Shown piece by piece: positions 3,007 to 19,448 of a DNA stretch of 64,000 nt (positions within the stretch are counted from its first letter, which is position 1; each line of letters begins with the position of its first letter). The notes beneath the pieces were generated by a model. It was given only the letters and a program-made list of their open reading frames with translations. It had not been told where the DNA came from and made no database searches. The translations under genes were made by a program, and so were the position numbers. Source of the stretch: Bacillota bacterium (lineage in GTDB: Bacteria; Bacillota; Clostridia; Tissierellales; MES13); the NCBI GenBank assembly GCA_009711765.1, contig VEND01000090.1, positions 1,065 through 65,064 on the forward strand, in the 5' to 3' direction.

Positions 3007-4428
3007 TTGAATGATATATTTTATATAAGAGTTTTTAATAAAAGAAATAAAAAGGTATCTAGAGTACCTATTGAATATATAGTAACAATGGCTGTAGCAG
3101 CCCAGGCTCCTATTAAATTTCATGAAGAATTTTTAAAAGTGCAATCAATTATAGCTAGAACAATCCTTATTAAAAAGATAAAAGCCCTAGGGGGAAAAGG
3201 ATGCACTAAATATGATAGATGCGATATATGTGATGAAGGACACTGTATAAATATGGCCAGTGAAAAGTCACTAAAAGAAAAGTGGAAAGAAGACTATAAT
3301 AAAAATATGGAAATTATAAAAAGGGCAGTAAAATCCACTGAGGATTTAATTATAACTATGGATAATAAACCAATAGATGCAAGGTTTCATAATAGTTGTG
3401 GTGGTTCTACTGAAAATGCTGAGAATGTATTAGGTAATAAAGTATTATATTTAAGAAAGGTTTTATGTGATAATTGTGTGGATTCCCCTGATTGGGATAA
3501 AGAGAAGGTAATAAATATAAAAGATCTACAAGAGAAGTTAGGAGTTAAATTTCCTAAGTTAAATTACAAATTAGATGTAGATATCAAAGGTTTTATAGAA
3601 GATATAAAAAGGGATGAGCAAGGTAGAATCCAAAGTATGAAAATAGGTGATAAAGTTTTTAAAGGTATAGAGATAATGGATATTTTAAATCTTAAATCCA
3701 CAAAATTTAGTATGTCCCCTTTAACTATTAAAGTTAAATCTAGAGGAAGGGGAGATGGCTTAGGTTTATGTCAATGTGGGGCTAATGAAATGGCTAAAGA
3801 AGGCTTTTTATATGAGGATATAATAAATTATTACTATACAGGGGTTGAAATTAAAAAGGTTGAAAAGCCATGCATAAATAAGCCACTTCAGGGTAAGATA
3901 TTTATATTAGACCCAGGACATGGAGGAAGCGTTACAACCGATAATGTTGGAGTTAATGGTTTAAGAGAAAAGGATGTTGTACTTAAAATATGTAAGTTAC
4001 TGAAAAAATCATTAACTAAATTAGGAGCGACTATACATCTAACCCGGGATAGTGATATATACATTCCATTAAATAAAAGAGTTAATCTCGTAAATGATAT
4101 TAGGCCTGATTTTTTATTATCTATTCATCTTAACTACTTTCCTAATAGTTCCATAAAGGGTTGTGAGATTTATCATTTTAAAAATGATACTGACAGTTTT
4201 GCCCTAGGAAAATTTATAATAAACAATATAAAGGATTTAGATATTATAGCTAAGGGAGTTAGAAGTGCAGAATTTTTTATGCTCCGAGAATGCGGGGTAA
4301 GTAGTCTTCATATTGAGGTTGATTATTTAAGTAATCCTTTAGTGGAAGAAAAATTAAGAAGTGATGATTATTTAACTAAGATAACAAGTAAAATAACTGA
4401 AGGAATCCTAGAATTTTACGAATATTAA
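3007..4428 (+). CDS. SpoIID/LytB-like domain fused to N-acetylmuramoyl-L-alanine amidase (Amidase_3)
   Basis: TTG start after TAAGGAGG. SpoIID-type block: KVQSIIARTI...GHC...DARFHNSCGGSTENAENV. C-terminal Amidase_3 block: ILDPGHGG...REKDVVL...LLSIHLN...GCEIYH. Confidence 0.8.
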   Translation: MNDIFYIRVFNKRNKKVSRVPIEYIVTMAVAAQAPIKFHEEFLKVQSIIARTILIKKIKALGGKGCTKYDRCDICDEGHCINMASEKSLKEKWKEDYNKNMEIIKRAVKSTEDLIITMDNKPIDARFHNSCGGSTENAENVLGNKVLYLRKVLCDNCVDSPDWDKEKVINIKDLQEKLGVKFPKLNYKLDVDIKGFIEDIKRDEQGRIQSMKIGDKVFKGIEIMDILNLKSTKFSMSPLTIKVKSRGRGDGLGLCQCGANEMAKEGFLYEDIINYYYTGVEIKKVEKPCINKPLQGKIFILDPGHGGSVTTDNVGVNGLREKDVVLKICKLLKKSLTKLGATIHLTRDSDIYIPLNKRVNLVNDIRPDFLLSIHLNYFPNSSIKGCEIYHFKNDTDSFALGKFIINNIKDLDIIAKGVRSAEFFMLRECGVSSLHIEVDYLSNPLVEEKLRSDDYLTKITSKITEGILEFYEY

Positions 4429-4860: not shown

Positions 4861-4895
4861 AATGAACTGCCCTAATAGGGCAGTTCATTTTTTTG
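4861..4895 (+). terminator. Rho-independent terminator of veg
   Basis: AATGAACTGCCCT-aat-AGGGCAGTTCATT perfect 13-bp stem followed by a T-run. Confidence 0.9.
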
Positions 4896-4987
4896 ATATA
4901 CTACTAATTATTACAAATAAACTAATCTTAAAGAATAGGTTAAAGTCTGATATAATTAGATTATACTTAATACGAGGGGGACTTTCT

Positions 4988-5815
4988 TTGAAAAAACTAA
5001 TGATATTACTTTTTATATTAACATTTCTTTTCTCTGGATGCGCTAAAAGTAAACCAAACAAGCCAGAGGATGTAAAAGCAGATGAAAATATAGATGAAAA
5101 TAATGAAGTTAAAGACGATAAAGATAAAAAGGAAAAAAAGGAAGAAAAGATATATGAAGGTGAAGCCCTAGATACATTAGATAAGGATGGAATAATAGAA
5201 GTCTATAGTGAAAGGGTAGAAAATGTAAGGGATAATGAAACTAAGGAAAAAGCAATATATAAGTTAAAAGATTTTGAAAAAGTAAAACTACTAGAAACAC
5301 TACCCTATGGATGGTTTTTAGTTGAACTTAAGGATGGAACTAAAGGATATGTGGATTCAAGATATATAAGAACAAAGGAAATTCCGCCCCATGATTTTAA
5401 TGTAAAGGATAAAGGATATACCCTAATATTTACCCATGAAGATCAAACCCTTAAGATATATAAAGATGGAAAACTTATAAAAGAAACCATAGGTTCAAGT
5501 GGTCTTTGGGATCATTTCACTCCTAGGGGAATATTTAGAGTTCAGGATAAAATTAAGCTTTATGGTAAACTTAGACCAAGTAGAGGAAAGTGGTTTTATA
5601 CGCCTAGGATAAAACAAGGCGGTAAATACTGGGTAAGATTCAGTGGAGTTTATTTATTTCATTCAGTACCCTTTACTGAGGAGGGTAAGTTAATTAAAAA
5701 AGAAGCTCAAAAACTTGGACAACCTGCAAGTCATGGTTGTATTAGACTTCCTGTTGAGGATGCTAAATATATATATGAAAATATAAAACCAGGAGCATTG
5801 GTTTTAATATATTAA
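4988..5815 (+). CDS. L,D-transpeptidase (YkuD domain) lipoprotein with SH3-like domain
   Basis: Listed ORF 4862 begins inside the veg terminator. The likely start is TTG 4988 (or ATG 5000) after GAGGGGGA. Lipobox LFSGC. YkuD catalytic block is GQPASHGCIRLP. Confidence 0.85.
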   Translation: MKKLMILLFILTFLFSGCAKSKPNKPEDVKADENIDENNEVKDDKDKKEKKEEKIYEGEALDTLDKDGIIEVYSERVENVRDNETKEKAIYKLKDFEKVKLLETLPYGWFLVELKDGTKGYVDSRYIRTKEIPPHDFNVKDKGYTLIFTHEDQTLKIYKDGKLIKETIGSSGLWDHFTPRGIFRVQDKIKLYGKLRPSRGKWFYTPRIKQGGKYWVRFSGVYLFHSVPFTEEGKLIKKEAQKLGQPASHGCIRLPVEDAKYIYENIKPGALVLIY

Positions 5816-6147
5816 CAAATTAGGTAATAGACAGTTAATAACTGTTTAAATAGATAATTAAATAATAAAAAATAAAAACAGTCTTAGTTCTATAAAATTT
5901 AGAACTAAGGCTGCTTTTATTTTTTTGTAGTTGCTTGTTTATTAAAGTAAAATTTTTTAAAAAATAAATAGACAAGCAAACATGTTTTGTAATTAGCGAA
6001 TATATATTTAAAAAGAAATAGAAATTAATGTATAGAACAAGAAATCAGTGGAAATAATTAACTATGAATATAAATTAAAGGGAGACAAGGAAATACATTC
6101 CATACATGGGCACCTGGAATGTAGGGAGTCAATGGTGCAACCGACCC
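5747..6147 (+). repeat. Copy A of duplicated segment (ldt 3' end + intergenic + structured leader)
   Basis: Aligns by eye with 10539..10856. Copy A carries about 90 extra nt around the ldt terminator. Confidence 0.85.
5876..5927 (+). terminator. Rho-independent terminator of the L,D-transpeptidase gene
   Basis: CAGTCTTAGTTCTA...TAGAACTAAGGCTG 14-bp stem (one G-U) followed by TTTTATTTTTTT. Confidence 0.8.
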
Positions 6148-6178
6148 GAGGCCTAGAAAGATTTAGGTTGTATTTTTA
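6078..6178 (+). promoter_or_regulatory. c-di-GMP-II (GEMM-II)-like riboswitch, copy A, leader of sipW
   Basis: Ordered blocks GGAAAUAC, AUGGGCACC and GGUGCAACCGACC, as I recall them from the C. acetobutylicum c-di-GMP-II aptamer (..UGGGCAC..GUGCAACCGACC..). Stem ACAUUCCA/UGGAAUGU. Weak hairpin 6150..6169 plus U-run lies before the sipW RBS. Confidence 0.68.
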
Positions 6179-6198
6179 TGTTAAAAAAGGGGGAGCAC

Positions 6199-6747
6199 AT
6201 GAAAAAAGTGTTTAAATGGCTAAGTAATATCATACTTGGAATTTTAATTATTTTAGTTTTATTTTCTGTATTTTCTATGTTTCAAAGTAGAAAAAATCCA
6301 GATAAAGTACAATCAATATTTGGGTATAAACCAATGTCAGTTTTAACTGGAAGTATGAGACCAAAGCTTCAACCTGGGGATATGATAGTAGCTAAGGATA
6401 TACTTCCAAAAGAAGTTAAATTAAAAGATATCATAACTTTTAAAATAGGTAGTAATACTTTAGTTACCCATAGAGTTGTAGATATTGTTACTAAAGATAA
6501 TAAACTATATTTTAAAACTAAAGGTGATGCAAATAATGTGAAAGACCAAGATTTAGTATCATCAGACCAACTTATAGGAGTTTTAGCTTTTAATATACCT
6601 AAAGGCGGATATATAGCTAATTTTATAAGAAGTCCTAAAGGTTTTTTATTATTAATTATAGTGCCAATAATTCTCCTTTTAGGAGGGGAATTAAAAAGCA
6701 TATTATCAGATGTGGATGAATGCGATAACAAAGTCAAAAAATTCTAA
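6199..6747 (+). CDS. sipW: Signal peptidase I, SipW (archaeal/ER) type
   Basis: ATG 6199 after AAGGGGGAG. N-terminal TM, then LTGSMRPKLQPGDMIV (Ser box), VTHRVVD (His box) and TKGDANNVKD, plus a C-terminal TM as in B. subtilis SipW. Confidence 0.88.
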   Translation: MKKVFKWLSNIILGILIILVLFSVFSMFQSRKNPDKVQSIFGYKPMSVLTGSMRPKLQPGDMIVAKDILPKEVKLKDIITFKIGSNTLVTHRVVDIVTKDNKLYFKTKGDANNVKDQDLVSSDQLIGVLAFNIPKGGYIANFIRSPKGFLLLIIVPIILLLGGELKSILSDVDECDNKVKKF

Positions 6748-6844
6748 TGATAATATGTAATATAAAAACAAAATAATTAACATAGTTTAAGGTTTACTAG
6801 GGGATAAAAGATTACTTTAGGAGGTGACTTGTAACTAAAGAGAA

Positions 6845-6885
6845 AAAAATGGGCATCTGTGAGAGAGATAACCCATTTTTAAAAA
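6845..6885 (+). terminator. Hairpin plus T-run between sipW and first TasA-like gene (possible attenuator or terminator)
   Basis: AAAAATGGG (6845..6853) pairs with CCCATTTTT (6872..6880), with an inner ATCT/AGAT extension. Confidence 0.45.
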
Positions 6886-6964
6886 AAGAAAATATAATAA
6901 AACTTTCTACTATAGTATATGTAAAAAATAGAAAATTAAAATAGTTCTTAAGGAGGATTTTTAA

Positions 6965-7924
6965 ATGAAAAAGAAAGTATTATTAAGTGTTTTATTGGTA
7001 GGTTTATTAGCCTTTGGTGCAGGAATGGGAACTTTAGCTTATTTTCAAAGTCAATTTAAAAGTGTAGGTTCAGTTATTCAAGCTGCTGAATGGGATATTG
7101 AGATGGATGATTTAATTGAAAATACGAATGGCACAGTTACAAGTGAATTTGACGTACCTTATTTTGCACCAGGTATGAGTAATGAAATGTCGTTATTTAT
7201 TAGAAGTGGGGCTACAAATGTAGATAGAAAGATTACAGTGAAAGTTGAACCTAAGGGTGATTTATTTACAAATATTAACTATCCATTTATTTTTAATGTA
7301 AATCATAGTAATGGACCAGGCGCTCCAACTTTAGTAGAAGATAATAAAGTTTATACCTATGAGTTCTATAGAACAAAAGAAGAAATTATAGGTACCGAAT
7401 ATATTTCTGTAGAGTATGAATGGCCATTTGATAGTTCTCCAGCAGTTGACAAAAGTTTAGAAGGGTTAGCAGGTACAATGGATGTCACAGTAACAGTTAC
7501 TCAAGTTAAGCCAGAAGATATGCCAGCTAGTTATACACAACTTTCAGGAGATGCAAGAGTTAATGCACCAGTTGATGGAGTAAAAAGAAATTGGTCACCT
7601 TTCCAAGGTAAAATAGATGAAAATAATGTACCTATTGAAATGAAAATTGAGGATCCAAATCTTGGTACTATAGAATTTGAATTAGAATATAATAAAGCTG
7701 TTAATGAATATAATTTAGCTAAATTTGAAGCTAATACTCCTGTAGGTCAAAATTATTTAGACAAAATTGTTCATCTTAGATTTATGCCTGATAACGAAAC
7801 ACCTGGACCACAAGTAAACCTTAGAAATGGATTTTCTTTAGAAGGTATTGATATAACTTCAGCAACACATTTTTACTTTTGTGATGTAAGCGGAAATAAT
7901 CAAAAGATTGAGATAGACAAATAA
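6965..7924 (+). CDS. TasA/camelysin-superfamily secreted protein with extra C-terminal domain
   Basis: SipW-cognate-style signal (LLAFGAGMGTLAYFQSQ). PG strand FAPGMSNEMSLFIRSG. C-terminal strand of the fold is LAGTMDVTVTVTQ at about aa 170-185. About 130 aa of unassigned domain follow. Confidence 0.75.
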   Translation: MKKKVLLSVLLVGLLAFGAGMGTLAYFQSQFKSVGSVIQAAEWDIEMDDLIENTNGTVTSEFDVPYFAPGMSNEMSLFIRSGATNVDRKITVKVEPKGDLFTNINYPFIFNVNHSNGPGAPTLVEDNKVYTYEFYRTKEEIIGTEYISVEYEWPFDSSPAVDKSLEGLAGTMDVTVTVTQVKPEDMPASYTQLSGDARVNAPVDGVKRNWSPFQGKIDENNVPIEMKIEDPNLGTIEFELEYNKAVNEYNLAKFEANTPVGQNYLDKIVHLRFMPDNETPGPQVNLRNGFSLEGIDITSATHFYFCDVSGNNQKIEIDK

Positions 7925-7930
7925 ACAATG

Positions 7931-7970
7931 AAACAAACAGGTGAGTAGTTATACTCATCTGTTTGTATAT
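7931..7970 (+). terminator. Hairpin after TasA-like gene (weak terminator)
   Basis: ACAAACAGGTGAGTA / TACTCATCTGTTTGT 15-bp stem (one G-U). No strong T-run follows. Confidence 0.4.
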
Positions 7971-8101
7971 AACTAGACACAGTACCTTAATAATAAACTT
8001 TGTAATAGTTTTATGAAATTAATAAGGCTATAAAAATATTATAATTTTATTAATTTTATAGAAATTTTCAATTTAAATTCTTGTGAGTAAAGGAGATGGA
8101 A

Positions 8102-9229
8102 ATGGTGAAAAAGACTTATTATTTTCTGGTTATAATAGCAATAATAATTGTTATATTTTTATTACCCAAAAATATGTTTACAGAAGATAATATTCCAACA
8201 ATATTAATTGGTAATAATGACATAGAAGTTGAACCTATATTTAAAAGTAAAGGAATAGGTAGTAGTGGGCCTTGGTACCCTGGATATTCAGCTGAGAATA
8301 CACTAAAAATATTAAATAATACTAATTCTAAAGTGAAGGTAAATAATTTAGGAATAGATATATCCTTATTTAGAAATGATATAAAGTTAGAAACTGACAA
8401 TAAAGATGTTATGGATTATTTAGATAATATGTTAATAAAAATAGATTATAGAAATCCTTTAACGAGAACATTTAAGGGAAATATTTTTGAAGGTACATTT
8501 AAAGAATTTTTAAATGGAGTAGATACAAATTTAGTATTAGGAAAGAAAGATAGTATAAATTTAATTTATACTATAAAAATGGATGAAAAAGCAGAGTCTA
8601 ATATAGCAGGAATAGTTGGAAAAACAGATTTCACGGTTAATATACAAGGTGATAATAAAACTAGTACTACTAAAAGAAAAAAAGAAGAAAAATATGATGA
8701 TATAGATAATCACTGGGCCCATGATTGTATAAAAACCTTACTGAAACATGAAATTATAAAGGGGTATCCTGATGGGACTATAAAACCAAATAATTATATT
8801 ACAAGGGCAGAGACGGCTGTTTTAGTAGGAAATGCATTAGATTTAGAAGAAAATAATAAATTCTTTTCAGGATATTTTGATATTTTACCACTTTGGGCAA
8901 GGGGTCATATAATCTCAACTACTGAAGCAGATGTTTTTAAAGGTTATCCAGGAAGATTATTTAAAGCTTATAAAAATATATCAAGAGAAGAAATGACTTC
9001 AGTACTTATAAGGGCATTTATAGAAAAAGAAAAAACAGATATAGATATTAAATTTGTAGATAAGAAAGATATTAGTGATTGGGCAATTGAAGATATAAAA
9101 ATAGCAGTAGACGAAAAAGTGATTGAAGGTTATCCAGATAATACATTCAAGCCTAAAGAAAATATAACAAGGGCAGAGGCATTTACAATCATTTGTAAGT
9201 TATTAGGATATCATGATGAACATAAATAA
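8102..9229 (+). CDS. TasA-like N-terminal domain fused to three SLH (S-layer homology) cell-wall anchoring repeats
   Basis: ATG 8102 is 6 nt after GGAG. N-terminal TM. PIFKSKGIGSSGPWYPGYSAENTLKILNNTNS...MDEKAESNIAGIVGKTDFTVNIQ. SLH repeats: HWAHDCIKTLLKHEIIKGYPDGT.KP...ITRAE, three times. Paralog of 18309..19448. Confidence 0.8.
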   Translation: MVKKTYYFLVIIAIIIVIFLLPKNMFTEDNIPTILIGNNDIEVEPIFKSKGIGSSGPWYPGYSAENTLKILNNTNSKVKVNNLGIDISLFRNDIKLETDNKDVMDYLDNMLIKIDYRNPLTRTFKGNIFEGTFKEFLNGVDTNLVLGKKDSINLIYTIKMDEKAESNIAGIVGKTDFTVNIQGDNKTSTTKRKKEEKYDDIDNHWAHDCIKTLLKHEIIKGYPDGTIKPNNYITRAETAVLVGNALDLEENNKFFSGYFDILPLWARGHIISTTEADVFKGYPGRLFKAYKNISREEMTSVLIRAFIEKEKTDIDIKFVDKKDISDWAIEDIKIAVDEKVIEGYPDNTFKPKENITRAEAFTIICKLLGYHDEHK

Positions 9230-9249
9230 GGATTTAGGAGGTGAATATA

Positions 9250-10476
9250 GTGAAAATGAATAAGAAAAAGATTGTAATAAAATCAGTTACTTTTTTAGTA
9301 TCTGGATTTATAATTAGTACAGCCTTTTTAATGAATTATGACACTTTTTCCTTCTACACTGAAAAGCTAACAGGGGAGGTAGGTGTTTCAGCTGCTAATG
9401 AAAAAGATATTATTAAAGATATAAATTTAGAAACTGATAGGTTTGGTAATACAGAGACCTTAGTATTACAAAAAGGAGAAGGATATGAAGGGGTACCAGT
9501 TATATATTTTTCAATTGATGGAGAGATAGAGGATTATATATTAAATATAAATCCTTTAGTTTTAAATTCATCTCAATCTAAAATATATATTAAAGCGAAA
9601 TCTAATATAACTTTAGAACAGTTTATTAAATTATTGGCAAGCGATAAAGATAAAATAACAGGGACAATAAATATAAGGTCTTTAAATGATTTTGTATATA
9701 ATAAAGACTATACATTAGAATTCAGTAAAAACTATCTTATTGATAAATTTAAATCTCAAATTCCGACAGAAGATAGAAAAGTTATAGAAATTGCAGAAAA
9801 AATATTACAAAGTAATCAGATAAGTTTAAGTGAAGAAAGATTAGTGGATTTTGCTATTTATTCTTTTAAAGAAAATGAAATGAATTCTATCAAGATAGTT
9901 AAAAAACTACTACAACATATTTTTTCTAAAAATAGTACTGAGGTTGATTCGTTAAAGGTTAGTAAAGAACATAGTTTATCCTTACAAAAAGAGCAGATAG
10001 AGTTGATAGATATAATACAGCCTAAATTTGTAGATTATATGAAGGATTTAGAAGGGACAGTTAAAAATTTAAATAAAGTAATAGATGATAATATATTAAA
10101 AATCGAAAAACTTAATGGTGAGAAAGGGATATTAGAAAGAAAAGCAAAAGAATTAGAAGAAACAAAAGAAGTTAAAAATCAAGAAATTGAAAAGCTAAAT
10201 AAAAAAATAGAAGAGATTAATAATGATATTGAAGTACTAAAGGATAATAATAATAAATTAGACAAAAGAATATCATATCTTAAAGAAGATAAAAATGATT
10301 TAGAAAAATCTATTAGAAAATTAAGAAAAGAAAAAGAATCATTGTTAAAGAAAAATGAAAGATTAATAAAGGAAAATAAAGAGCTTAAAAAAGAGATAGA
10401 AGAACTTAAAGATAAGCTTTCAACAGATAACGATGACAACACTACAGTCTCAGGGGATGTTTATGGAAGTAATTAG
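9250..10476 (+). CDS. Membrane-anchored or secreted protein with long C-terminal coiled coil
   Basis: GTG 9250 or ATG 9256 after AGGAGGTG. N-terminal hydrophobic segment is followed by TFSFYTEK. The last ~150 aa are a heptad-like K/E/L/N-rich coiled coil. Confidence 0.6.
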   Translation: MKMNKKKIVIKSVTFLVSGFIISTAFLMNYDTFSFYTEKLTGEVGVSAANEKDIIKDINLETDRFGNTETLVLQKGEGYEGVPVIYFSIDGEIEDYILNINPLVLNSSQSKIYIKAKSNITLEQFIKLLASDKDKITGTINIRSLNDFVYNKDYTLEFSKNYLIDKFKSQIPTEDRKVIEIAEKILQSNQISLSEERLVDFAIYSFKENEMNSIKIVKKLLQHIFSKNSTEVDSLKVSKEHSLSLQKEQIELIDIIQPKFVDYMKDLEGTVKNLNKVIDDNILKIEKLNGEKGILERKAKELEETKEVKNQEIEKLNKKIEEINNDIEVLKDNNNKLDKRISYLKEDKNDLEKSIRKLRKEKESLLKKNERLIKENKELKKEIEELKDKLSTDNDDNTTVSGDVYGSN

Positions 10477-10538
10477 TGAAAATATTAAAAACAAAAGGGA
10501 GTTTTGCATGAATACAATATCAAAGGAAATTTTACAAA

Positions 10539-10608
10539 CTGCAAAGTGTTGAGGATGTTAAACATATATGAAAATATAAAACTTGGATCATTTGTTTTAA
10601 TATATTAA
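10539..10608 (+). pseudogene. Dead 3' fragment of an L,D-transpeptidase gene (duplicate of 5747..5815)
   Basis: Translates LQSVEDVKHI, compared with LPVEDAKYIY in the intact gene. A 2-nt deletion shifts the frame. The equivalent stop context TATATTAA is retained. Confidence 0.75.
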
Positions 10609-10856
10609 TAAATTAGGTAATAGACAGTTAAAACTGTTTGTTACCTTTTTATTTTTTTGTATAAATTAAAAGACAAGCATACATATTTTTTTTATTAGTG
10701 AATATATATTTATAAGGATATAAAAGGAGTAAATTTATATATATAAAACGAAATGTTTTGGAAATAGTTAGAGACAAATGATTATAAAAGGGAGACTAGG
10801 AAATACATTCCATATATGGGCACCTGGAATGTATGGAGTCAATGGTACAACCGATC
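10539..10856 (+). repeat. Copy B of duplicated segment (ldt remnant + intergenic + structured leader)
   Basis: Collinear with 5747..6147. The leader core 10791..10856 matches 6081..6146 at 61 of 66 positions (manual alignment). Confidence 0.85.
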
Positions 10857-10886
10857 TTTATTTTAGTAAAAGGTCTTTTTATTTAT
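10788..10886 (+). promoter_or_regulatory. c-di-GMP-II-like riboswitch, copy B, with intrinsic terminator; leader of two-component system
   Basis: Same blocks as copy A, except GGUACAACCGAUC replaces GGUGCAACCGACC. Terminator stem GATCTTT (10853..10859) / AAAGGTC (10869..10875) plus TTTTTATTTATT. The 5' half of that stem overlaps the aptamer 3' end. Confidence 0.65.
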
Positions 10887-10906
10887 TATACGGGGGGGAG
10901 TAATTT

Positions 10907-12574
10907 TTGAACAGTATTTATAGGATAAAATCTTTTTTAAAAAAACAGTCAGAAGAAGTAAAAATAATGTTTTTTTATAGATACATATCTTTAATAGTTA
11001 CTTCATTTTTTTATTTTGTTGGAGATTCCCATCATAATATTCAAAGAAGACTATTTATAATAATATGTCTTAGTATATCGTCTATTATACTTAGTTACTT
11101 ATATATAATAAATGAAAAAAACCCTTCGAAAATAAAATTACTAGTGTTAATAGAAACTTTAGGTAATTGCTCAATTTTAATACCTTCTGGTGGGCTTAAT
11201 AGTCCCTATGTTTGGTATTCAATAAATACTATATTAATGACTTCAATGGCTTTAAAAGGAAAATATTCTTGGATTAATACATTTATATATTTAAGTGCTT
11301 CTACTTGGATATCCTATCTAGTTACTGATTTTAATAATTATAGCTTTATAGATTTAATAGAGGAAGAATCAAATATAATACTTAGTTTAATTTTGATTAC
11401 TTCAATAATAAGATTACTGTCAAAATACATAAAAAAGATGGAAATAAAAGGTAAGAAGGTTAAAGAAGCCAACAGAAAATTAAAAGAATCAATGACTCAT
11501 ATAATGGAACTTTATCAGGCAGTACATTTATTTACAACACAAAATAGTAAAGATAGTCTGATAGAAATTATAATTAATCATACTAAAAAAATAACAAAGG
11601 CAAATACAGTTATATTTTATAATATATCAAATGAAGAAGATAAATTAATCTGTAAAGGTAGTAAGTTATCTAATGATATAAAGGAAAAATTAAAAATAAA
11701 AATATCAGATTTAAGGAATAATATTCTAGATTCACAAATAACAATAGAATTAGGAATAGAAGGAGAAAATTTCGTTTTAATTGCTTTAAAGTCAAATTAT
11801 AAGACATATGGGATATTAGGGATTAAGTTAAATTATAAAGAAAATATAGAACAATTACAGTTTTTATCTGAGTTAAGCTCTATTGTATTAGAGAAATTCG
11901 AGCTTGAACAGGTTAATGAAAAACTATTGATTACTGAAGAACAAAATAGAATAGCAAATGAAATTCACGATAGTGTCCTGCAGAGACTATTTAGCATATC
12001 ATGTGGAATATTTGCTTTAATTAAAAAAGAAAAAATGACATCTGATGAGATGAATAATGAATTAAATATGATAAGAAGTTCCATAAACAGTACTATGAAG
12101 GAATTAAGATCAACAATATATGGACTGAGCTGGAAAAAAGAAGGTTTAGATTATTTTGTAGATAATATTTCAAATTATATTAATGAAGTTAAAAAATTAA
12201 ATAATGTAGATATAAGTTTCAATATAAAAGGAGATCATGAATTATTATCATCACTACAAAAGAAGTCAGTACATAGAATAATTTGTGAAGGTATAGGAAA
12301 TGCAGTTAATCATGGAAAGGCTAATAATATTGAAGTAAAGCTTAATATTAAAAAATATATAACTTTACTTAAAATAGCTGATAATGGTAAAGGATTTGAT
12401 TTAAATAAGGTAAGAAATAAAAAGGATGTAGGATTAGGTATTAAAAATATTCATTATTTAACTCAGTTACTTAATGGTGAAATTAATTTTAATACTAGAA
12501 ATGAAAAAGGAACTAAAATTAAAATCACCATTCCAAATAATATTAATAATTTTAAAAAGGAGGAAGTAATATGA
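10907..12574 (+). CDS. Sensor histidine kinase, HisKA_3 (NarX/LiaS/DegS-like) family, polytopic N-terminus plus GAF-like middle region
   Basis: TTG start after GGGGGGAG. About 5 TM helices. H-box EEQNRIANEIHDSVLQRLF. HATPase_c blocks NAVNHGKA, DNGKGF and GLGIKNI. Confidence 0.85.
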   Translation: MNSIYRIKSFLKKQSEEVKIMFFYRYISLIVTSFFYFVGDSHHNIQRRLFIIICLSISSIILSYLYIINEKNPSKIKLLVLIETLGNCSILIPSGGLNSPYVWYSINTILMTSMALKGKYSWINTFIYLSASTWISYLVTDFNNYSFIDLIEEESNIILSLILITSIIRLLSKYIKKMEIKGKKVKEANRKLKESMTHIMELYQAVHLFTTQNSKDSLIEIIINHTKKITKANTVIFYNISNEEDKLICKGSKLSNDIKEKLKIKISDLRNNILDSQITIELGIEGENFVLIALKSNYKTYGILGIKLNYKENIEQLQFLSELSSIVLEKFELEQVNEKLLITEEQNRIANEIHDSVLQRLFSISCGIFALIKKEKMTSDEMNNELNMIRSSINSTMKELRSTIYGLSWKKEGLDYFVDNISNYINEVKKLNNVDISFNIKGDHELLSSLQKKSVHRIICEGIGNAVNHGKANNIEVKLNIKKYITLLKIADNGKGFDLNKVRNKKDVGLGIKNIHYLTQLLNGEINFNTRNEKGTKIKITIPNNINNFKKEEVI

Positions 12575-13191
12575 AGATACTTGTAGTTGATGACCATCCA
12601 TTAGTAAGAAAGGGGATATCATCAACCCTCTCCTTTGAAGATGATATTGAAAAAGTACATGAAGCATCTAGTGTAGAAGAAGCAATGAAGGGATTACGTA
12701 GATATAATCCTGAAATTGCTATGATCGATTTAAAACTTGGTAAAGAAGATGGTCTAGACATTGTAAAAAAAGCTAAGAAAGAGAGATTATTTACTAAATA
12801 CATAATATTAACTTCATCTTCTAATAGGGATGACTTTTTAAGGGCACAAAGGGTAGGAGTAGATGGATACGTACTAAAGGAAGCTTTTACAGAGGATGTA
12901 ATATATGCATTTCATGTAGTTAGAAGGGGTAAAAAGTTTTTTGATCAAGAAATTTTACAATATCAGATGGATGAATCTAATGATGATAAATATGATGAAT
13001 TAACACCTAGAGAAAGGGATGTCTTAGTTGAGTTAGGGAAAGGTTTAAGTAACATACAAATAGCAAGAAAATTATATATATCAGAAAATACAGTTAAAAA
13101 ACATGTTAGTAATATATTTTCAAAATTATGTTTAAGTCATAGAACAGAGGCAGCACTTTATATTAATAATTCAGTTAAATTTGGAACTTAA
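12571..13191 (+). CDS. Response regulator, NarL/LuxR family
   Basis: 4-nt overlap with the kinase gene. REC domain (KILVVDDHPLVRKG, MIDLKLG). C-terminal LuxR HTH (LTPRERDVL..L.KGLSNIQIARKLYISENTVKKHVSNIF). Confidence 0.92.
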   Translation: MKILVVDDHPLVRKGISSTLSFEDDIEKVHEASSVEEAMKGLRRYNPEIAMIDLKLGKEDGLDIVKKAKKERLFTKYIILTSSSNRDDFLRAQRVGVDGYVLKEAFTEDVIYAFHVVRRGKKFFDQEILQYQMDESNDDKYDELTPRERDVLVELGKGLSNIQIARKLYISENTVKKHVSNIFSKLCLSHRTEAALYINNSVKFGT

Positions 13192-13223: not shown

Positions 13224-13721
13224 ATGGTAAGAAAAAGAAAGAAAAAAATATTTAAAGGTAAGAAATTAATGTTAATTAGCTCTATTGCAATGTTAAATTT
13301 TGTAGGAGTAAGTTATGCATCTTGGAATGATAACATAGAAATATTTACTTCTCTTTCCACTGGGGAAATGAATATATCCTTTATAGATAGTCATAATATT
13401 CAAAAGGTAAGGGGAAAAGGAACTTTAGAAGTAAAACATATCGGTGAAAATACAATAGAAATTAGTGGAGAGGTAGATAAAGATTATAAAGCATTTTTAC
13501 ATTACGGTGTAGTAAATAAAGGTAGTATCCCTGTTAAATTTAGAGGACATCCATCCCATGATAAAGCTGGATTGAAACTACGATTAAATAATCAATCTAA
13601 AATGATAGGACCTAAGGAAGTCATTTATAAAAATGGGAATCCTAAATTACATATTGAAGCAAGGGAAGTAGGTACTTGTAATTTTACAATAAAATTACCC
13701 TTTAAACAATGGAATCGTTAG
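13224..13721 (+). CDS. Minimal TasA-superfamily secreted protein (165 aa)
   Basis: Signal plus N-terminal strand FVGVSYASWNDNIEIFTSLSTGEMNISF, compared with TasA WAAFNDIKSKDATFASGTLDLS. Also VVNKGSIPVKF. C-terminal NFTIKLPFKQWN, compared with TasA FSFEATQWN. Confidence 0.7.
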   Translation: MVRKRKKKIFKGKKLMLISSIAMLNFVGVSYASWNDNIEIFTSLSTGEMNISFIDSHNIQKVRGKGTLEVKHIGENTIEISGEVDKDYKAFLHYGVVNKGSIPVKFRGHPSHDKAGLKLRLNNQSKMIGPKEVIYKNGNPKLHIEAREVGTCNFTIKLPFKQWNR

Positions 13722-13768
13722 CTAGATAGAGTCTACTTTTTAATATAGGTTTTAATGGAGGTATAAAT

Positions 13769-14005
13769 GTGAAAAAAGGATCGGTTATTTTATTAAGTAC
13801 AATAGGTGGATTTATCTTAATGTCAGGGGGATATGGCCTTTGGAGAGATAGTTTAACTATTAAAGGTAATATAACAGTTATTGAAGAGGTATATCCTGAA
13901 GAGACAATGGATGCTTTATCCTTTGAACAACCTAATTTAGACTTAGAAAATGTTACAGATATAGAGGATGAAAAAACGGTTACTGAAGATGTGTACAGTG
14001 AATAA
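13769..14005 (+). CDS. 78-aa secreted mini-protein: signal peptide, TasA-type N-terminal strand and acidic tail only
   Basis: GTG start after GGAGG. LSTIGGFILMSGGYGLWRDSLTIKGNITV resembles GAGYAYWSETLTINNTVKTG of the downstream subunits. The rest is D/E-rich, and there is no globular domain. Confidence 0.55.
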   Translation: MKKGSVILLSTIGGFILMSGGYGLWRDSLTIKGNITVIEEVYPEETMDALSFEQPNLDLENVTDIEDEKTVTEDVYSE

Positions 14006-14036
14006 ATAATAAAGAAAAGTAAATGGGGGACAAAGG

Positions 14037-15248
14037 ATGATAAATAATTATTTACCAACAAAAGCATCTAAAAAAAGATGCTTTTTACTTATCGGCTTAT
14101 TACTTAGTTTATATTTGGTTGAAAACTCACCCATAACTAAATATCTTGATAATCAAATTTTAAATTACATTTTAAAACCTATGTTATGGGGAAGTATGGC
14201 TTTAATAGTATGGATATTTCCTAAAATCAGATCTAAGGGTTTATTAAAATTAAAGGGACTTATAAATATATGGGCTTTTAATTTTTCTATAATTTTTATT
14301 GTTATATCAGTAATAGCAGGAGTTATTGATGGCTTAGGGAAAAGTCCTTACGATCACTCTTTAAGGGGTATGTTACTTAATATTTTACTAGTTGGTTCTA
14401 TGTTAATTGGTAGGGAGTTTGTAAGAAGTTATATAGTAAATAGTTTAACTAAGGAAGAAAATTATGTTGTATTTGTATTAGTTGCTTTATTTATGACTTT
14501 TATTAGTATATCTTTAAATAGGTATTTTAAAATAGATGGATATGTAAGTGGAGTTAAATTTACAGCCCAATACTTTGCTCCTGAATTTTCAAAAAATCTT
14601 TTTGCATCCTATTTAGTATTTTTAGGAGGGCCAATAGCTTCAATAATTTATTTAGGAGTATTAGAAGCATTTCATTGGCTTTCACCTATACTTCCGGATT
14701 TAAAATGGATTATAACTGCACTAATAGGTGTTTTATGTCCTATTTTTTCACTCCTTGCAATGCAAAGTATATATCTAAATCAATCTAAGGAAATAAAAGT
14801 GAGTGATAAAGAGGAAGATAGTCCTATAAGTTGGATGATAACTAGTATAGTATCCATAGGAATCATATGGTTTGCAGTGGGTGTATTTCCAGTTTATCCT
14901 TCTGTTATAGCAACAGGTAGTATGGAGCCTATGATAAAACCTGGGGATGTAATATTAGTTAAAAAAATAGTAGATATAGAAGGTGTTAAAAAGTTAGATA
15001 TAGACGATGTGATTCAGTTTAAACGAGGTAATATACTAATATCCCATCGAATAAAAGAAATAGTAGAGAAAGAAAAAGAGGGAATTCAATATAAAACAAA
15101 GGGAGATAATAACTCAGTTTCAGACAGTAAGTTAGTAAAGCCAGAACAGATAAAGGGAAAGATTGTAAAGGTTGTACCAAAAATAGGATGGCCTACATTA
15201 CTTATTAAAAGTAAAGACGATATTCCATTAGATCAAATAGAATTTTAA
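14037..15248 (+). CDS. Polytopic membrane domain (~280 aa) fused to SipW-type signal peptidase I
   Basis: The N-terminus has about 7-8 predicted TM helices of unassigned family. C-terminal peptidase blocks: ATGSMEPMIKPGDVILV, ISHRIKEIV, YKTKGDNNSVSD. Confidence 0.8.
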   Translation: MINNYLPTKASKKRCFLLIGLLLSLYLVENSPITKYLDNQILNYILKPMLWGSMALIVWIFPKIRSKGLLKLKGLINIWAFNFSIIFIVISVIAGVIDGLGKSPYDHSLRGMLLNILLVGSMLIGREFVRSYIVNSLTKEENYVVFVLVALFMTFISISLNRYFKIDGYVSGVKFTAQYFAPEFSKNLFASYLVFLGGPIASIIYLGVLEAFHWLSPILPDLKWIITALIGVLCPIFSLLAMQSIYLNQSKEIKVSDKEEDSPISWMITSIVSIGIIWFAVGVFPVYPSVIATGSMEPMIKPGDVILVKKIVDIEGVKKLDIDDVIQFKRGNILISHRIKEIVEKEKEGIQYKTKGDNNSVSDSKLVKPEQIKGKIVKVVPKIGWPTLLIKSKDDIPLDQIEF

Positions 15249-15280
15249 AAAAATCACAGGATACAGTCCTGTGATTTTTC
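15248..15280 (+). terminator. Rho-independent terminator after the SipW fusion gene
   Basis: AAATCACAGGA-tacag-TCCTGTGATTT stem followed by a T-run. Confidence 0.85.
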
Positions 15281-15453
15281 TATGTAGATAAATATTAGTT
15301 CAGCGACGTAATACTAAAGTAGTATATCTATAACTAATAAGTATTAGTAAATATACATCTAAAATAGGATAAATAACTATCCTTACGTACGATGTTAAAT
15401 ATATGAATAAATACTATAATTAGTATTGTAAGAAATATGAAAGCTAGCTAATA

Positions 15454-15475
15454 TTACTTAATGGCCATTAAGTAA
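15454..15475. promoter_or_regulatory. Perfect 22-bp palindrome upstream of first BsaA/TasA-like subunit gene (candidate operator)
   Basis: TTACTTAATGG|CCATTAAGTAA, ending 46 nt before ATG 15522. Confidence 0.4.
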
Positions 15476-15521
15476 AACCTATCAAATTTATTAAATTAAA
15501 AAAATAAGGGAGAGATTTTTA

Positions 15522-16124
15522 ATGAAGAGAACTAAATTTTTAGCATTAGCATTAGTAGCAGCAATTATGGTAATGGGTGCTGGATATGCATATTGGTCAG
15601 AAACTATAACAATTAGCAATACAGTTAAAACTGGGGAATTAGATTTTACATTTAATGACGCAGCAATAGTAAGTGTTGATGAGTATATGGATTATGATGC
15701 TACTTCTACTTGTGGTGTAAATAGTGATGATAATAATCAAGTTGATATTGTATTAGAAGATATGTACCCAGGAGCAGAAGCCACAGTAAAATTTGATTTA
15801 GAAAACACAGGTACTATGAAAGCTAAACTAAAGAATTTTGCTATACCAACAGCACAAGAGAATGAATATGTTCATGTAACTTCAGTTAAATTAGGTGATG
15901 CCGAATTACTTACTGAAACTATAAATATTGCTGATTTAGACTCAACGTTAGAAGCTCAGAATATTACTATTGAACCAGATGCTGAGCAATATTTTGAGAT
16001 TACTTTCGAAATAGATCCAAATGCTGATGAAGATCAAGTAGCTGAAAATCTTGGAGATAATGATGATGCTATTGAGTTTACTTTAACTGCAGATGGACTT
16101 CAATATAACGATGATGAAAACTAA
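15522..16124 (+). CDS. BsaA/TasA-family SipW-dependent matrix or fibre subunit (acidic, 200 aa)
   Basis: Signal plus strand VMGAGYAYWSETITISNTVKTGELDF. MYPGAEATVKFDLENTGT. C-terminal AIEFTLTADGLQ. Strong RBS GGGAGAG. Confidence 0.8.
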   Translation: MKRTKFLALALVAAIMVMGAGYAYWSETITISNTVKTGELDFTFNDAAIVSVDEYMDYDATSTCGVNSDDNNQVDIVLEDMYPGAEATVKFDLENTGTMKAKLKNFAIPTAQENEYVHVTSVKLGDAELLTETINIADLDSTLEAQNITIEPDAEQYFEITFEIDPNADEDQVAENLGDNDDAIEFTLTADGLQYNDDEN

Positions 16125-16135
16125 GATTATTAAAA

Positions 16136-16163
16136 TTTATGCAGGGTAAGAACCCTGCATAAA
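16136..16163 (+). terminator. Hairpin after subunit gene 1
   Basis: ATGCAGGG-taagaa-CCCTGCAT. The trailing T-run is weak. Confidence 0.5.
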
Positions 16164-16259
16164 TTATCTTTAAAAATTCATTTAAAATAAAGTAATTATT
16201 GTTATGATAGTTTGAGAAAAATTATATTAGAAACACATTAAAAAATGAGGGGTGTTTTC

Positions 16260-16922
16260 ATGAAAAAATCAAGAGTGCTGGCCCTAACTTTAGTAGTTGC
16301 GGTTGTGTTAATGGGAGCTGGATATGCATATTGGAGTGAAACTTTAACAATTAATAATACAGTAAAAACAGGTGAATTGGATTTACAATTTGACTATCCT
16401 ACTTATGATGGTGACTATGATGATAAATATCCATATTCAGATGATTATATGAAAGTTGATTCTTATTTTGAAGATGAGAAACATAAATTAGTTTTTGAGT
16501 TAGAAGATGTTTATCCAGGTGGCGGCGGTTGGTTAAATTTTAAAATTAAAAATACGGGAACTGTACCAGCTAAGCTTACAAGTATAACTCCTTCAATCCT
16601 TTCAGATGAAGCTAATATGAAAGATGAATTTAATTATGCACTTCATTCAATAAAATTATATTATCCTATAAAGATTGGACAATGGGAATGGACATATGTA
16701 ATACCTGTAGATTTTCCTATGTATGCTACTACATTTAATGATTTTGTAGGAAAATTACAATCAAAACTTAGTCAATATACTTTAGAACCAGGTGCATACT
16801 TTGTAATAAATGCTGAAAGTGGAGGTTATGATATACAATTACCAAGTACAGTAACAAGTGATGACTTTGAAGATGAAACGTTCAAATTTGATTTATTATT
16901 AAACTTTGATCAAGCGCATTAA
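16260..16922 (+). CDS. BsaA/TasA-family SipW-dependent matrix or fibre subunit (paralog, ~220 aa)
   Basis: ATG 16260 after GAGGGGTG. LMGAGYAYWSETLTINNTVKTGELDLQF. VYPGGGGWLNFKIKNTGT. C-terminal TFKFDLLLNFDQA. Confidence 0.8.
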   Translation: MKKSRVLALTLVVAVVLMGAGYAYWSETLTINNTVKTGELDLQFDYPTYDGDYDDKYPYSDDYMKVDSYFEDEKHKLVFELEDVYPGGGGWLNFKIKNTGTVPAKLTSITPSILSDEANMKDEFNYALHSIKLYYPIKIGQWEWTYVIPVDFPMYATTFNDFVGKLQSKLSQYTLEPGAYFVINAESGGYDIQLPSTVTSDDFEDETFKFDLLLNFDQAH

Positions 16923-16962
16923 TACTAAAAAAGCTAGGAATATAGTCCTAGCTTTTTTAGTA
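16923..16962 (+). terminator. Rho-independent terminator after subunit gene 2
   Basis: TACTAAAAAAGCTAGGA / TCCTAGCTTTTTTAGTA 17-bp stem including a T-run. Confidence 0.85.
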
Positions 16963-17039
16963 TTAATGTACTATTCTAAAAAGGTAATTCATAAATTATG
17001 TAGAATATGTAATTAATACAAATTGGTGGGAGTGATGTC

Positions 17040-18146
17040 ATGAAGTTTAATATAAATAAGAACATCAGAAAAATTATAATGATAGCTAGTATAATTCTGA
17101 TTATGATTACCTCTTTTTTCTTATATCGTGAGTATAAAATTAAAGAATATGAAGAAAAGAAAATAAGTTTATATAGTTATAATAATAAATCTATTATTAA
17201 TTACGAAGTTTTTCTTAAACCTAATGTTTTGTATGAGACCGAAAGTATAGGAGAAAGGCACATATATATTACAGAGTTTGTTGATTATCTTAATACGATA
17301 TTTACTTATGATTTTAAAGGGGAAAAAGAAGCAGAAATTAAAGGAAATTATGAAATTGTAGCTGTAGTTGAAGGATATACAGGCGAAGGTGAAACATATA
17401 AAAGTATATGGAAGAAGGCTTTTACTTTAGTATCTAAAAAGAAATTCAATGTTAAAGATAAAAAGGTTTCTATAAATCAAGAAGTTCCAATAAAATTTCA
17501 TGAATATAATAATTTCGCTAAAAAGGTTATTGAAGACTCAAAAATTTATTCTAGTGTTAAATTAAATGTGTTTATGGATGTTAATCTAAAAGCTAATACT
17601 GACAAAGGACTGATAGAAGAAAAAATAACACCTGCTATAGAGATACCTCTTAATACAAATTATTTTGAAATTGCTGGAGAGCTATCTCAAGATAAAGAAG
17701 GAAGTATAGAAAAAACAGTTAAGGTTGAATTGCCTGTGGATAGAAAAAAAGTTATTTCATATTGTGTACTTATAGGTATATTTTTAATAGTATTATTATT
17801 TGTATTGATATTTACTAAAGGGATTTTAGATATAAATCCTTTAGAAAAGAAATTGAAAAAAATATTTAAAAGCCATGGAGATAGATTAGTAGCATTAAAG
17901 GATGAAGTTATATATGATTATGAAAAAATAAATACTGTAAATTCTATAGATGATTTAGTAAGAATTTCTGATGAGATAGGGAAACCTATAATGTATAAGT
18001 ATAGTGAAAATCTTTTAGATATAACTAAATTTTATGTTTATGATGAGACTACTATATATGTTTTAAATTTAGATAAACTTATAGGAAAAAATGAAGTAGA
18101 GGAAACTGTAAAAAATATGATTTCAAATGATAGTGCTGATAGTTAG
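17040..18146 (+). CDS. Bitopic membrane protein of unknown function (possibly DUF5305-like)
   Basis: TM1 at about aa 12-28, a ~210-aa beta-rich outside domain, TM2 at about aa 240-258, and a ~110-aa cytoplasmic tail. The family assignment is from memory only. Confidence 0.6.
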   Translation: MKFNINKNIRKIIMIASIILIMITSFFLYREYKIKEYEEKKISLYSYNNKSIINYEVFLKPNVLYETESIGERHIYITEFVDYLNTIFTYDFKGEKEAEIKGNYEIVAVVEGYTGEGETYKSIWKKAFTLVSKKKFNVKDKKVSINQEVPIKFHEYNNFAKKVIEDSKIYSSVKLNVFMDVNLKANTDKGLIEEKITPAIEIPLNTNYFEIAGELSQDKEGSIEKTVKVELPVDRKKVISYCVLIGIFLIVLLFVLIFTKGILDINPLEKKLKKIFKSHGDRLVALKDEVIYDYEKINTVNSIDDLVRISDEIGKPIMYKYSENLLDITKFYVYDETTIYVLNLDKLIGKNEVEETVKNMISNDSADS

Positions 18147-18308
18147 TTGATAAAAACTACTCAAAAGTAGTATAAGAAATTAATCTAAAGTATTATATAA
18201 AAATATAAAATATTAAATAAGATAATAGTAAGTATTTAAAAAAATATACATATGCAAAGGATAAGTAATTTAAGTTTTAAGAGTATTGAAATCATAGAGG
18301 TGAATTTT

Positions 18309-19448
18309 ATGTGTAAATCGTTTAAGTATTTTAAATACATAACTATATCCCTAGTAATGCTTTGTCTTATTTTTACTAGTTCTTTATCCTATGCATATGA
18401 CACACCAGTTACTGAAGTAACCATAGGTAGTAATAATGAAAACATAGATCCTATTTTTAAAAGTGATGGTTTAAATGGACAAGGAACATGGTATCCTGGA
18501 TATTCATCAAGTGGAATTTTAAGGCTTAAAAATGGACGTAATAAAAGTATTAAGATAAAAAATATAGGTATGGATGCTTCATTAGAGAAAAATGGGACCA
18601 CCCTTGATTTTGAAAATGAATCTGCAATGGCTTATATGAGTAAAATGAAAATAAAAGTTCAGTATAAAAGTCTATTTAGTAAAATAATTAAGGGTACTAT
18701 TTATGATGGTAGTTTTTATGAGTTTATAAATGGTGTAAATACTTCTATAAAAATAGGTAAAGATGATACGGTTGATTTAGTATATACAATTAAAATGGAT
18801 GAAAGTGCAGGAAATAATACTGAAGGTATTAAAGGGAATATAGATTTTACTGTAAGTCTTAAAGAAAATACTTCTAATACTAATACTAATACCGATACAG
18901 GAGGTACTACTAGAAAGAAAAAGCCTGTTAAACATTGGGCCCATGATTGTATAGAAACCCTTTTAGAAAAGGGTATAATTAAAGGGTATCCCGATGGAAC
19001 GATAAGACCAGATAATCATATAACAAGGGCAGAAGCATCAGCTTTAGTATGTAGGGCACTTAAATTAGAAGTAAAAAAACAGTGGCTTCCTAAGTATTTA
19101 GATATTAGTGGGCATTGGGCTCAAGGCTATATAACATCTACAACGAATGAAAAGGTATTTAAAGGATATCCTGGATTTGTATTTAGACCAGAGAGAAATA
19201 TTATAAGAGAAGAGATGTCTGCAGTTTTATTTAGGGCATTTGATAGAGAACTTCAAAAAGATTTAGAGTTAGAGTTTACAGATAATGATAAAATATCTGA
19301 TTGGGCTAAGAGTCATGTAAAGATAGGTGTGGAACATAAAATTATAGTAGGTTATCCAGATAATACATTTAAACCAAGAAATGATATAACAAGAGCAGAA
19401 GCCTTTACTATGATATGTAAGTTATTAGGATATCACAGTGAACATTAA
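18309..19448 (+). CDS. TasA-like N-terminal domain fused to three SLH repeats (paralog of 8102..9229)
   Basis: ATG 18309 after AGAGGTG. Signal peptide ends SLSYA-YD. PIFKSDGLNGQGTWYPGYSSSG...MDESAGNNTEGIKGNIDFTVSLK. SLH repeats: HWAHDCIETLLEKGIIKGYPDGT...ITRAEA. Confidence 0.8.
   Translation: MCKSFKYFKYITISLVMLCLIFTSSLSYAYDTPVTEVTIGSNNENIDPIFKSDGLNGQGTWYPGYSSSGILRLKNGRNKSIKIKNIGMDASLEKNGTTLDFENESAMAYMSKMKIKVQYKSLFSKIIKGTIYDGSFYEFINGVNTSIKIGKDDTVDLVYTIKMDESAGNNTEGIKGNIDFTVSLKENTSNTNTNTDTGGTTRKKKPVKHWAHDCIETLLEKGIIKGYPDGTIRPDNHITRAEASALVCRALKLEVKKQWLPKYLDISGHWAQGYITSTTNEKVFKGYPGFVFRPERNIIREEMSAVLFRAFDRELQKDLELEFTDNDKISDWAKSHVKIGVEHKIIVGYPDNTFKPRNDITRAEAFTMICKLLGYHSEH

Follow-up and report, generated by a model that had tools for sequence, protein, structure and literature searches.

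Class II c-di-GMP (c-di-GMP-II) riboswitches were described by Lee et al. in 2010, and the entry 3Q3Z is the crystal structure of the aptamer from Clostridium acetobutylicum reported by Smith et al. in 2011 (both as cited in PMC7583470 and PMC7288161). The residues listed as ligand contacts in 3Q3Z are A13, A14, U37, G39, U60, A61, and C68 to A74 (PMC7288161). In C. difficile, every class II switch is an ON switch, and that of pilA1 (Cdi-2-4) works via termination (PMC6366702). A described locus with a related set of genes is sipW-bsaABCRSD of C. perfringens, where BsaR and BsaS are needed for the sipW promoter (PMC7395162).

The window analyzed here is a stretch of 64,000 nucleotides from a clostridial metagenome-assembled genome. 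An Rfam cmscan of the window gave two matches to RF01786, both on the plus strand. The downstream match, copy B, is a second, full-length c-di-GMP-II aptamer, as the original prediction had held: it covers model positions 1 to 84 of 84 and scores well above the gathering score of 53.5 bits. The two aptamers and the parts of copy B are as follows.

6072-6155, plus strand: c-di-GMP-II aptamer copy A (RF01786; cmscan 61.9 bits, whole model).
10782-10865, plus strand: c-di-GMP-II aptamer copy B (RF01786; cmscan 68.8 bits, E = 2.5e-13).
10782-10792, plus strand: 5' strand of P1, pairing with 10855-10865 (cmscan alignment read against the sequence).
10794-10840, plus strand: P2 (10794-10796 with 10838-10840) around P3 (10803-10810 with 10827-10834).
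10820-10824, plus strand: 5' strand of the pseudoknot, GCACC, in the P3 loop (covariation counts).
10844-10848, plus strand: 3' strand of the pseudoknot, GGUAC, which is GRUGC or RGUGC in the family (covariation counts).
10848-10854, plus strand: predicted ligand-contacting core CAACCGA, intact in copy B.

The helices of copy B lie in the consensus arrangement, with all three pairs of P2 and all eight of P3 formed. P1 has five contiguous inner pairs (G.U, G-C, G.U, A-U, and A-U) and an outer part that is interrupted by mismatches. The aptamer cores of the two copies are identical at 62 of 67 positions (6080-6146 compared with 10790-10856); the 61/66 given previously reflects the same five differences, and the three string changes quoted with it are all correct. 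From copy A to copy B, the differences are A to U at 10797, C to U at 10815, G to U at 10834, G to A at 10847, and C to U at 10855. The claim that these are substitutions in a conserved core stood for one of them and had to be qualified for the rest. Position 10797 lies in the variable P2/P3 junction of the cmscan alignment. At 10815, in the P3 loop, the U of copy B is the family consensus, and position 10834 closes P3, where A10803-U10834 is a pair in copy B and an A.G mismatch in copy A. Copy B is therefore nearer to the family consensus than copy A at both of these positions, and it has the higher Rfam score because the A10803-U10834 pair is restored. The change at 10855 makes a G.U of the first P1 pair, G10792-C, and G10847A swaps an essentially invariant base in the highly conserved GUGCAACCG. 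By the alignment, 10847 appears as the single conserved family position altered in copy B, with 10855 predicted to weaken one pair.

Residues C68 to A74 of 3Q3Z are what we take to be CAACCGA at 10848-10854, on a presumed numbering offset that is consistent with all 13 listed residues. When the contact list of PMC7288161 is mapped onto the cmscan alignment, the predicted ligand-contact positions are all retained in copy B; A14-U60 of 3Q3Z corresponds to G10794-C10840, which matches the family consensus.

The register of the pseudoknot in copy B comprises G10820-C10848, C10821.A10847, A10822-U10846, C10823-G10845, and C10824-G10844, and four of the five pairs form. Since C10821 is unchanged opposite A10847, the C.A mismatch is uncompensated. 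A scan of a genome collection, using a pattern with the base at 10847 left free, returned 124 matches, and G occupied the equivalent position in every real one (123/123); the sole match with another base, a C, was evidently a chance match in high-GC sequence (1/124). The reverse search in metagenomes, requiring A at this position and leaving the suspected loop partner free, gave 26 contigs. The loop reads GGGUAC, with a compensating U, in 23 of them and GGGCAC, like copy B, in 3; counted as distinct sequences (n = 17), these are 15 U-A versus 2 C.A. With both sides left free, the neighboring pseudoknot pair is C-G in 34, U-A in 72, A-U in 2, and C.A in 1 of 109 distinct genome matches. These covariation counts therefore fix the pseudoknot register in copy B. 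An alternative register was rejected, the P3 loop having neither GUAC nor GUAU to pair with GUAC at 10845-10848.

Copy B thus has a mismatch without compensation within a covarying helix of 5 bp, next to the ligand pocket. The nearest-neighbor energy of the helix is -6.9 kcal/mol in copy A, -4.9 in the natural U-A variants, and -1.7 in copy B. The structural role that we ascribe to the base at 10847, presumably G67 of 3Q3Z, draws on the numbering of the 3Q3Z sequence, on the covariation seen here, and on the contact list of PMC7288161. Most of the A-carrying metagenome sequences exceed the Rfam threshold. The same uncompensated C.A was found in one other lineage, represented by two samples (L138 and L151), of which L138 scores 55.7 bits and passes the threshold; this lineage has a strong terminator, and the downstream context in L151 was uninformative, with a small secreted ORF only. 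The other uncompensated C.A sequence, L135, falls below the threshold. The C.A of copy B is a rare, not a unique, sequence variant. Given that the source is a metagenome-assembled genome, A10847 may also be a single-base artefact of assembly or strain.

The substitution G10847A might also be read as retuning the aptamer to another condition or ligand, such as a different cyclic dinucleotide, or to pH-dependent binding via an A+.C wobble. Such a wobble matches G.U in shape and is pH dependent, and the closest named relatives of the downstream kinase come from the alkaliphilic genera Alkaliphilus and Natronincola. Rfam clan CL00127 does contain variants, among them c-di-GMP-II-GAG, which was found among some of the metagenome matches, but canonical c-di-GMP-II is the best clan match for copy B (cmscan, with the top-scoring clan family displayed). 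Position 10847 is moreover absent from the ligand-contact list (PMC7288161), and natural A variants nearly always compensate with U, pointing to simple helix maintenance, and we give the retuning of copy B very little credence.

Beyond the aptamer, the leader of copy B continues with the elements of a putative expression platform.

10853-10875, plus strand: terminator-like hairpin, GAUCUUU at 10853-10859 with AAAGGUC at 10869-10875 and a 9-nt loop (sequence and folding).
10876-10887, plus strand: U-tract UUUUUAUUUAUU (T5AT3ATT; sequence).
10892-10900, plus strand: Shine-Dalgarno sequence GGGGGGGAG; the TTG start at 10907 follows after 6 nt (inspection).

The 7-bp stem and the U-run were found exactly where the original prediction had put them. 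The 5' half of the hairpin overlaps the last G-A of the core and the first five nucleotides of the 3' strand of P1, and the two pairings are mutually exclusive. Its stem has seven pairs (2 G-C, 1 G.U, and 4 A-U) and an energy of -4.7 kcal/mol. By itself, the hairpin does not stand out from shuffled sequences (z = -0.79), a generic terminator scan did not report it, and we gave it no weight as a separate line of evidence. We accept it as a probable terminator because of its positional homology with the far stronger terminators of orthologous leaders.

Nine orthologous loci from other genera of Clostridia were compared (L121 and L123 to L130). All nine have, in the same order, the genes for the kinase, the regulator, one or two small proteins, and an approximately 400-amino-acid protein, usually with a weak S26 (SipW-like) score, which is followed in most of them by proteins of TasA-like size and DUF5305; an SLH protein lies within the fetched stretch in three. 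In six of the nine, a c-di-GMP-II aptamer lies directly 5' of the kinase gene (L121, L124, L125, L126, L128, and L129, at about 6600-6910 in each), and the kinase leaders of L123, L127, and L130 gave no aptamer at the Rfam threshold. Every one of the six aptamer-bearing leaders has a hairpin and a U-run, with a 5' half, AACCG(A/G)CC, made of the ligand-contacting core and the 3' strand of P1. These terminators range from -9 to -21 kcal/mol and lie 50 to 280 nt before the start codon. Because the design is the same in 6/6, the ON-switch architecture is conserved, and so is the mutually exclusive choice between core plus P1 and terminator. The ON-switch logic proposed at the outset, in which the hairpin takes 3' nucleotides of the aptamer, is supported by this shared design and has its precedent in C. 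difficile (PMC6366702).

Homologs of the kinase with approximately 50% identity are numerous in Clostridia. No close relative of this genome was present in the collections searched, the nearest kinase being 55% identical. The scan of the genome collection with kinase peptides found no relative, the 8-mers chosen being too specific, and an exact look-up of the response regulator gave no match. Some of the orthologous loci hold more than one c-di-GMP element. L125 (Clostridiales bacterium oral taxon 876, the same as L028) has two closely similar c-di-GMP-II leaders about 0.8 kb apart, at 5913-5995 and 6705-6788 (6826-6861 and 7619-7654 in L028), one before an orphan LuxR-type regulator and the other before the kinase; leader duplication therefore recurs in this type of locus. 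In L129, the c-di-GMP-II/kinase leader is immediately preceded by a c-di-GMP-I riboswitch (5421-5507, plus strand, 88.5 bits) that lies 5' of a transglutaminase-like gene, and both classes are therefore adjacent in one locus.

Among nine related leaders, copy B has the weakest hairpin. Its platform, AAGGTCttT.TTTATTA, aligns base by base with AAGGTCggT.TTTATTA of L128; over the longer alignment, copy B reads CCGATCTTTATTTTAGTAAAAGGTCttTtTaTTTATTA and L128 reads CCGGCCTTTTTTT------AAGGTCggTaTtTTTATTA. Relative to L128, copy B has lost the GG that pairs with the CC of the core, and GGCC in the 5' half has become GAUC. The terminator of copy B appears to be a decayed form of the ancestral one, and the hairpin may terminate poorly. 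Energies calculated for secondary structure without pseudoknot or ligand favor the OFF fold over a fold in which P1 is forced; the margin is 7.8 kcal/mol in copy B, 4.1 in copy A, and 5 to 15 in the orthologs. On these modeled energies, a weaker aptamer is coupled to a weaker terminator in copy B.

The platform of copy A (6150-6182, plus strand) is unrelated in sequence to that of copy B and has an 8-pair hairpin, GGCCUAGA/UUUAGGUU, followed by GUAUUUUUAU. An alternative pairing of GUGCAACC with GGUUGUAU in copy A would sequester the pseudoknot strand and the core, and P1 of copy A is GGG/CCC only. The true start of the SipW-like gene behind copy A is likely the ATG at 6199, not 6178.

The gap between the U-tract and the Shine-Dalgarno sequence in copy B is only about 5 nt, and c-di-GMP-II switches that turn translation on have been described in reviews (PMC7583470). 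Ligand binding might on that account alter access to GGGGGGGAG at 10892-10900, so that copy B would control translation. The tandem aptamers of L015 and L057, which seem to run into a ribosome-binding site, would also fit such control. Inspection of the copy B leader, however, showed no anti-Shine-Dalgarno segment (pyrimidine-rich, complementary to the G-run), the G-run is either unpaired in the predicted folds or part of a trivial hairpin nearby, and the orthologous leaders all have clear terminators well upstream of the start codon. Translational control of copy B therefore strikes us as highly improbable. The tandem c-di-GMP-II aptamers have an 85-nt spacing within one leader, at about 2400-2600 on the minus strand of L015 and about 3085-3290 on the plus strand of L057; the second aptamer is followed by sequence that seems to overlap the ribosome-binding site, which suggests a tandem, possibly translational, switch.

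Copy B lies between two modules, and the surrounding features are these.

10615-10646, plus strand: strong intrinsic terminator, a 14-pair stem and U-run, which ends the copy A sub-operon (terminator scan).
10661-10789, plus strand: putative promoter and 5' leader block of copy B, 74% identical to about 5960-6079 of copy A.
10907-12574, plus strand: membrane sensor histidine kinase (HisKA_3 and HATPase_c; FH753_09925), the first regulated gene.
12571-13191, plus strand: LuxR/NarL-type response regulator, overlapping the stop codon of the kinase gene.
13224-19448, plus strand: rest of the conserved module (Pfam; gene order kept in L121 and L123 to L130).
15246-15282, plus strand: terminator-like palindrome, with a possible internal promoter before 15522.

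Because of the strong terminator at 10615-10646, copy B needs its own promoter. The promoter and leader blocks of both copies share the motifs AGACAAGCAWACAT and ATTAGYGAATATATATTTA. The latter occurs at 5992-6010 and 10694-10712 on the plus strand, and a third copy with three mismatches is found at 15343-15361, 5' of the TasA-like gene at 15522. Five matches to ATTAGYGAATATATATTTA were found in the window versus one expected, a number reached by none of 100 shuffles (0/100), and the motif may represent a common promoter element or be bound by the regulator of the locus. The NCBI annotation of FH753_09925 (P0001) is 100% identical to the kinase, with the same TTG start. The module at 13224-19448 encodes small TasA-like proteins, a 403-amino-acid SipW-like S26 protein, two camelysin/TasA-like proteins, a DUF5305 protein, and an SLH protein. 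The Pfam matches to S26 are weak (E = 3.4e-5 and 6.3e-4), and those to PF12389 have E values of 1.5e-8 and 5.3e-6. A SipW-like S26 peptidase, camelysin/TasA-like proteins, a HisKA_3 kinase, and a LuxR-type regulator are accordingly found in one locus. Copy A precedes a stand-alone SipW-like peptidase, a 319-amino-acid protein, an SLH protein, and a 411-amino-acid protein. Farther downstream, a lysine riboswitch (116 bits; 21138-21320, minus strand) lies 5' of a gene of the NhaC-type Na+/H+ antiporter family (19484-21037, minus strand), which looks like an ordinary association.

The history of the two copies can be read by comparison with the metagenome-assembled genome of L128 (FH761; FH753 here), with which the window has the upstream genes for CorA, HNOB-MCP (minus strand), SpoIID/amidase, and Veg in common. 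In L128 the kinase leader comes directly after veg; in the window the two are separated by a YkuD gene and by the copy A module in its entirety. In the comparison of window positions 4862-10646 with 6354-7001 of L128, the YkuD gene and copy A module are an insertion. Copy B is at the ancestral position because the kinase leader of L128 directly follows veg. The outgroups have G and C at 10847 and 10855, and both changes are therefore derived in copy B; A10847 and U10855 are transitions toward A/T in a genome with approximately 27% GC. The module proteins of the two copies are old paralogs, 39% identical for SipW and 46% for the SLH protein. Between the leaders, identity is 74% across the promoter and 5' leader and 92.5% within the aptamer core, and after CCGA(C/U)C the two are essentially unrelated. 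Since the identity of the leaders far exceeds that of the module proteins, the leader and promoter were copied or converted recently, the leader of copy A being the recent copy of that of copy B. The difference between core (92.5%) and flank (74%) is significant (Fisher p = 0.002) and argues for continued constraint on both aptamers, although an uneven gene-conversion tract could mimic the pattern.

These data bear on whether copy B is a decaying, dead riboswitch, in which useful c-di-GMP binding has been abolished and the eroded terminator is leaky. The kinase operon would then be effectively constitutive from a promoter of its own or under the control of proteins alone, and c-di-GMP control would have moved to copy A. 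Simple decay is disfavored mainly because the core has remained much better conserved than the flank since the duplication, even if the B-specific G-to-A and C-to-U transitions fit the mutation pressure of an AT-rich genome. The mismatch is uncompensated in a covarying, otherwise invariant pair and costs about 5 kcal/mol of helix stability, and the first P1 pair is weakened to G.U; against this stand the intact ligand-contact positions and an Rfam score above that of copy A. Similarly, the terminator is the weakest of the nine leaders and has lost the GG opposite the CC of the core, but the register of its hairpin and U-run with P1 is preserved, and the lineage of L138 and L151 keeps the same C.A together with a strong terminator. 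Loss of function has precedents, in that 5 of 16 C. difficile c-di-GMP riboswitches were reported to be nonfunctional (PMC6366702) and the lack of an aptamer at the Rfam threshold in 3/9 orthologous operons means that the element can be lost. We regard a dead copy B as a possibility to be taken seriously, if a rather unlikely one; on the choice between tuned and dead, the evidence leans toward a switch that is weakened but still constrained.

Our preferred reading, held with moderate confidence, is that copy B is a c-di-GMP-II transcriptional ON switch at the ancestral position before the kinase/LuxR-type regulator/SipW-TasA-like operon, attenuated and leaky relative to copy A and the orthologs. 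Without ligand, G10853 to U10859 would pair with A10869 to C10875, and the U-run would stop transcription some 20 nt short of the start codon. When c-di-GMP is bound, the same nucleotides would be held in the ligand pocket and P1, and RNA polymerase would read through. Both halves of this switch would be softened relative to the orthologs and copy A, through the C10821.A10847 mismatch, the G.U at the first P1 pair, and the short, AT-rich terminator, and the most likely outcome would be a leakier switch with a lower dynamic range and a higher c-di-GMP need than copy A. The comparisons show that copy B belongs to the family, that its two pairings exclude each other, that the architecture is conserved, and that the mismatch is rare; from these sequence features we infer that c-di-GMP binds, that transcripts do terminate, and which way and how far the affinity of copy B has shifted. 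A more elaborate scheme, which we find doubtful, is a two-threshold c-di-GMP circuit arising from recent duplication of the leader, with copy B selected for a weaker pseudoknot and a matching weaker terminator, or made pH dependent by a protonatable A+.C. If that were true, the kinase/regulator operon and the SipW-SLH module would come on at different c-di-GMP levels.

Copy B belongs to a textbook riboswitch class, and to that extent the result is mainly good annotation. Copies A and B are nevertheless a natural near-isogenic pair, one pseudoknot mismatch and terminator strength apart, and could be used to test how stable the pseudoknot of a class II aptamer has to be and whether paralogous switches of one locus have different thresholds. 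In the literature searched, we found no description of a c-di-GMP riboswitch linked to TasA, SipW, or camelysin in Clostridia, a silence that is weak evidence of novelty.

Set against the known systems, copy B fits the c-di-GMP-II family (RF01786) on every feature examined except full pseudoknot complementarity. In common with the family it has P1, P2, P3, the UGGGCAC loop, the core CAACCGA, and the register of the pseudoknot, and it differs in that the second pseudoknot pair is C.A, not C-G or U-A, and in that the first pair of P1 is G.U and P1 is AT-rich and interrupted by mismatches. The six orthologous leaders have the same aptamer class, position, operon, and terminator design but keep G at the pseudoknot position and have the stronger terminators given above; L128 also has the upstream gene order in common with copy B, without the copy A module between veg and the kinase gene, whereas the upstream genes differ in the other orthologous loci. 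As in the class II ON switches of C. difficile, Cdi-2-4 (pilA1) among them, a terminator is in competition with the 3' part of the aptamer, read-through with ligand is predicted, and the regulated genes build surface or adhesion structures. The terminator of copy B is much weaker, however, and the first genes behind it encode a two-component system, not a structural protein.

By gene content, the regulated locus resembles sipW-bsaABCRSD of C. perfringens, where a SipW-type peptidase, TasA/camelysin-like fiber proteins, and a kinase and regulator likewise share one locus and the regulator activates the sipW promoter (PMC7395162). The genes are ordered differently, the kinase and regulator coming first here, and whereas no riboswitch appears in PMC7395162, here a c-di-GMP-II aptamer stands before the kinase and a second one before the SipW-SLH module. 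A c-di-GMP-II switch before a kinase/regulator/SipW-TasA-like operon in several clostridial genera would tie c-di-GMP directly to a BsaRS-like regulatory module for matrix fibers.
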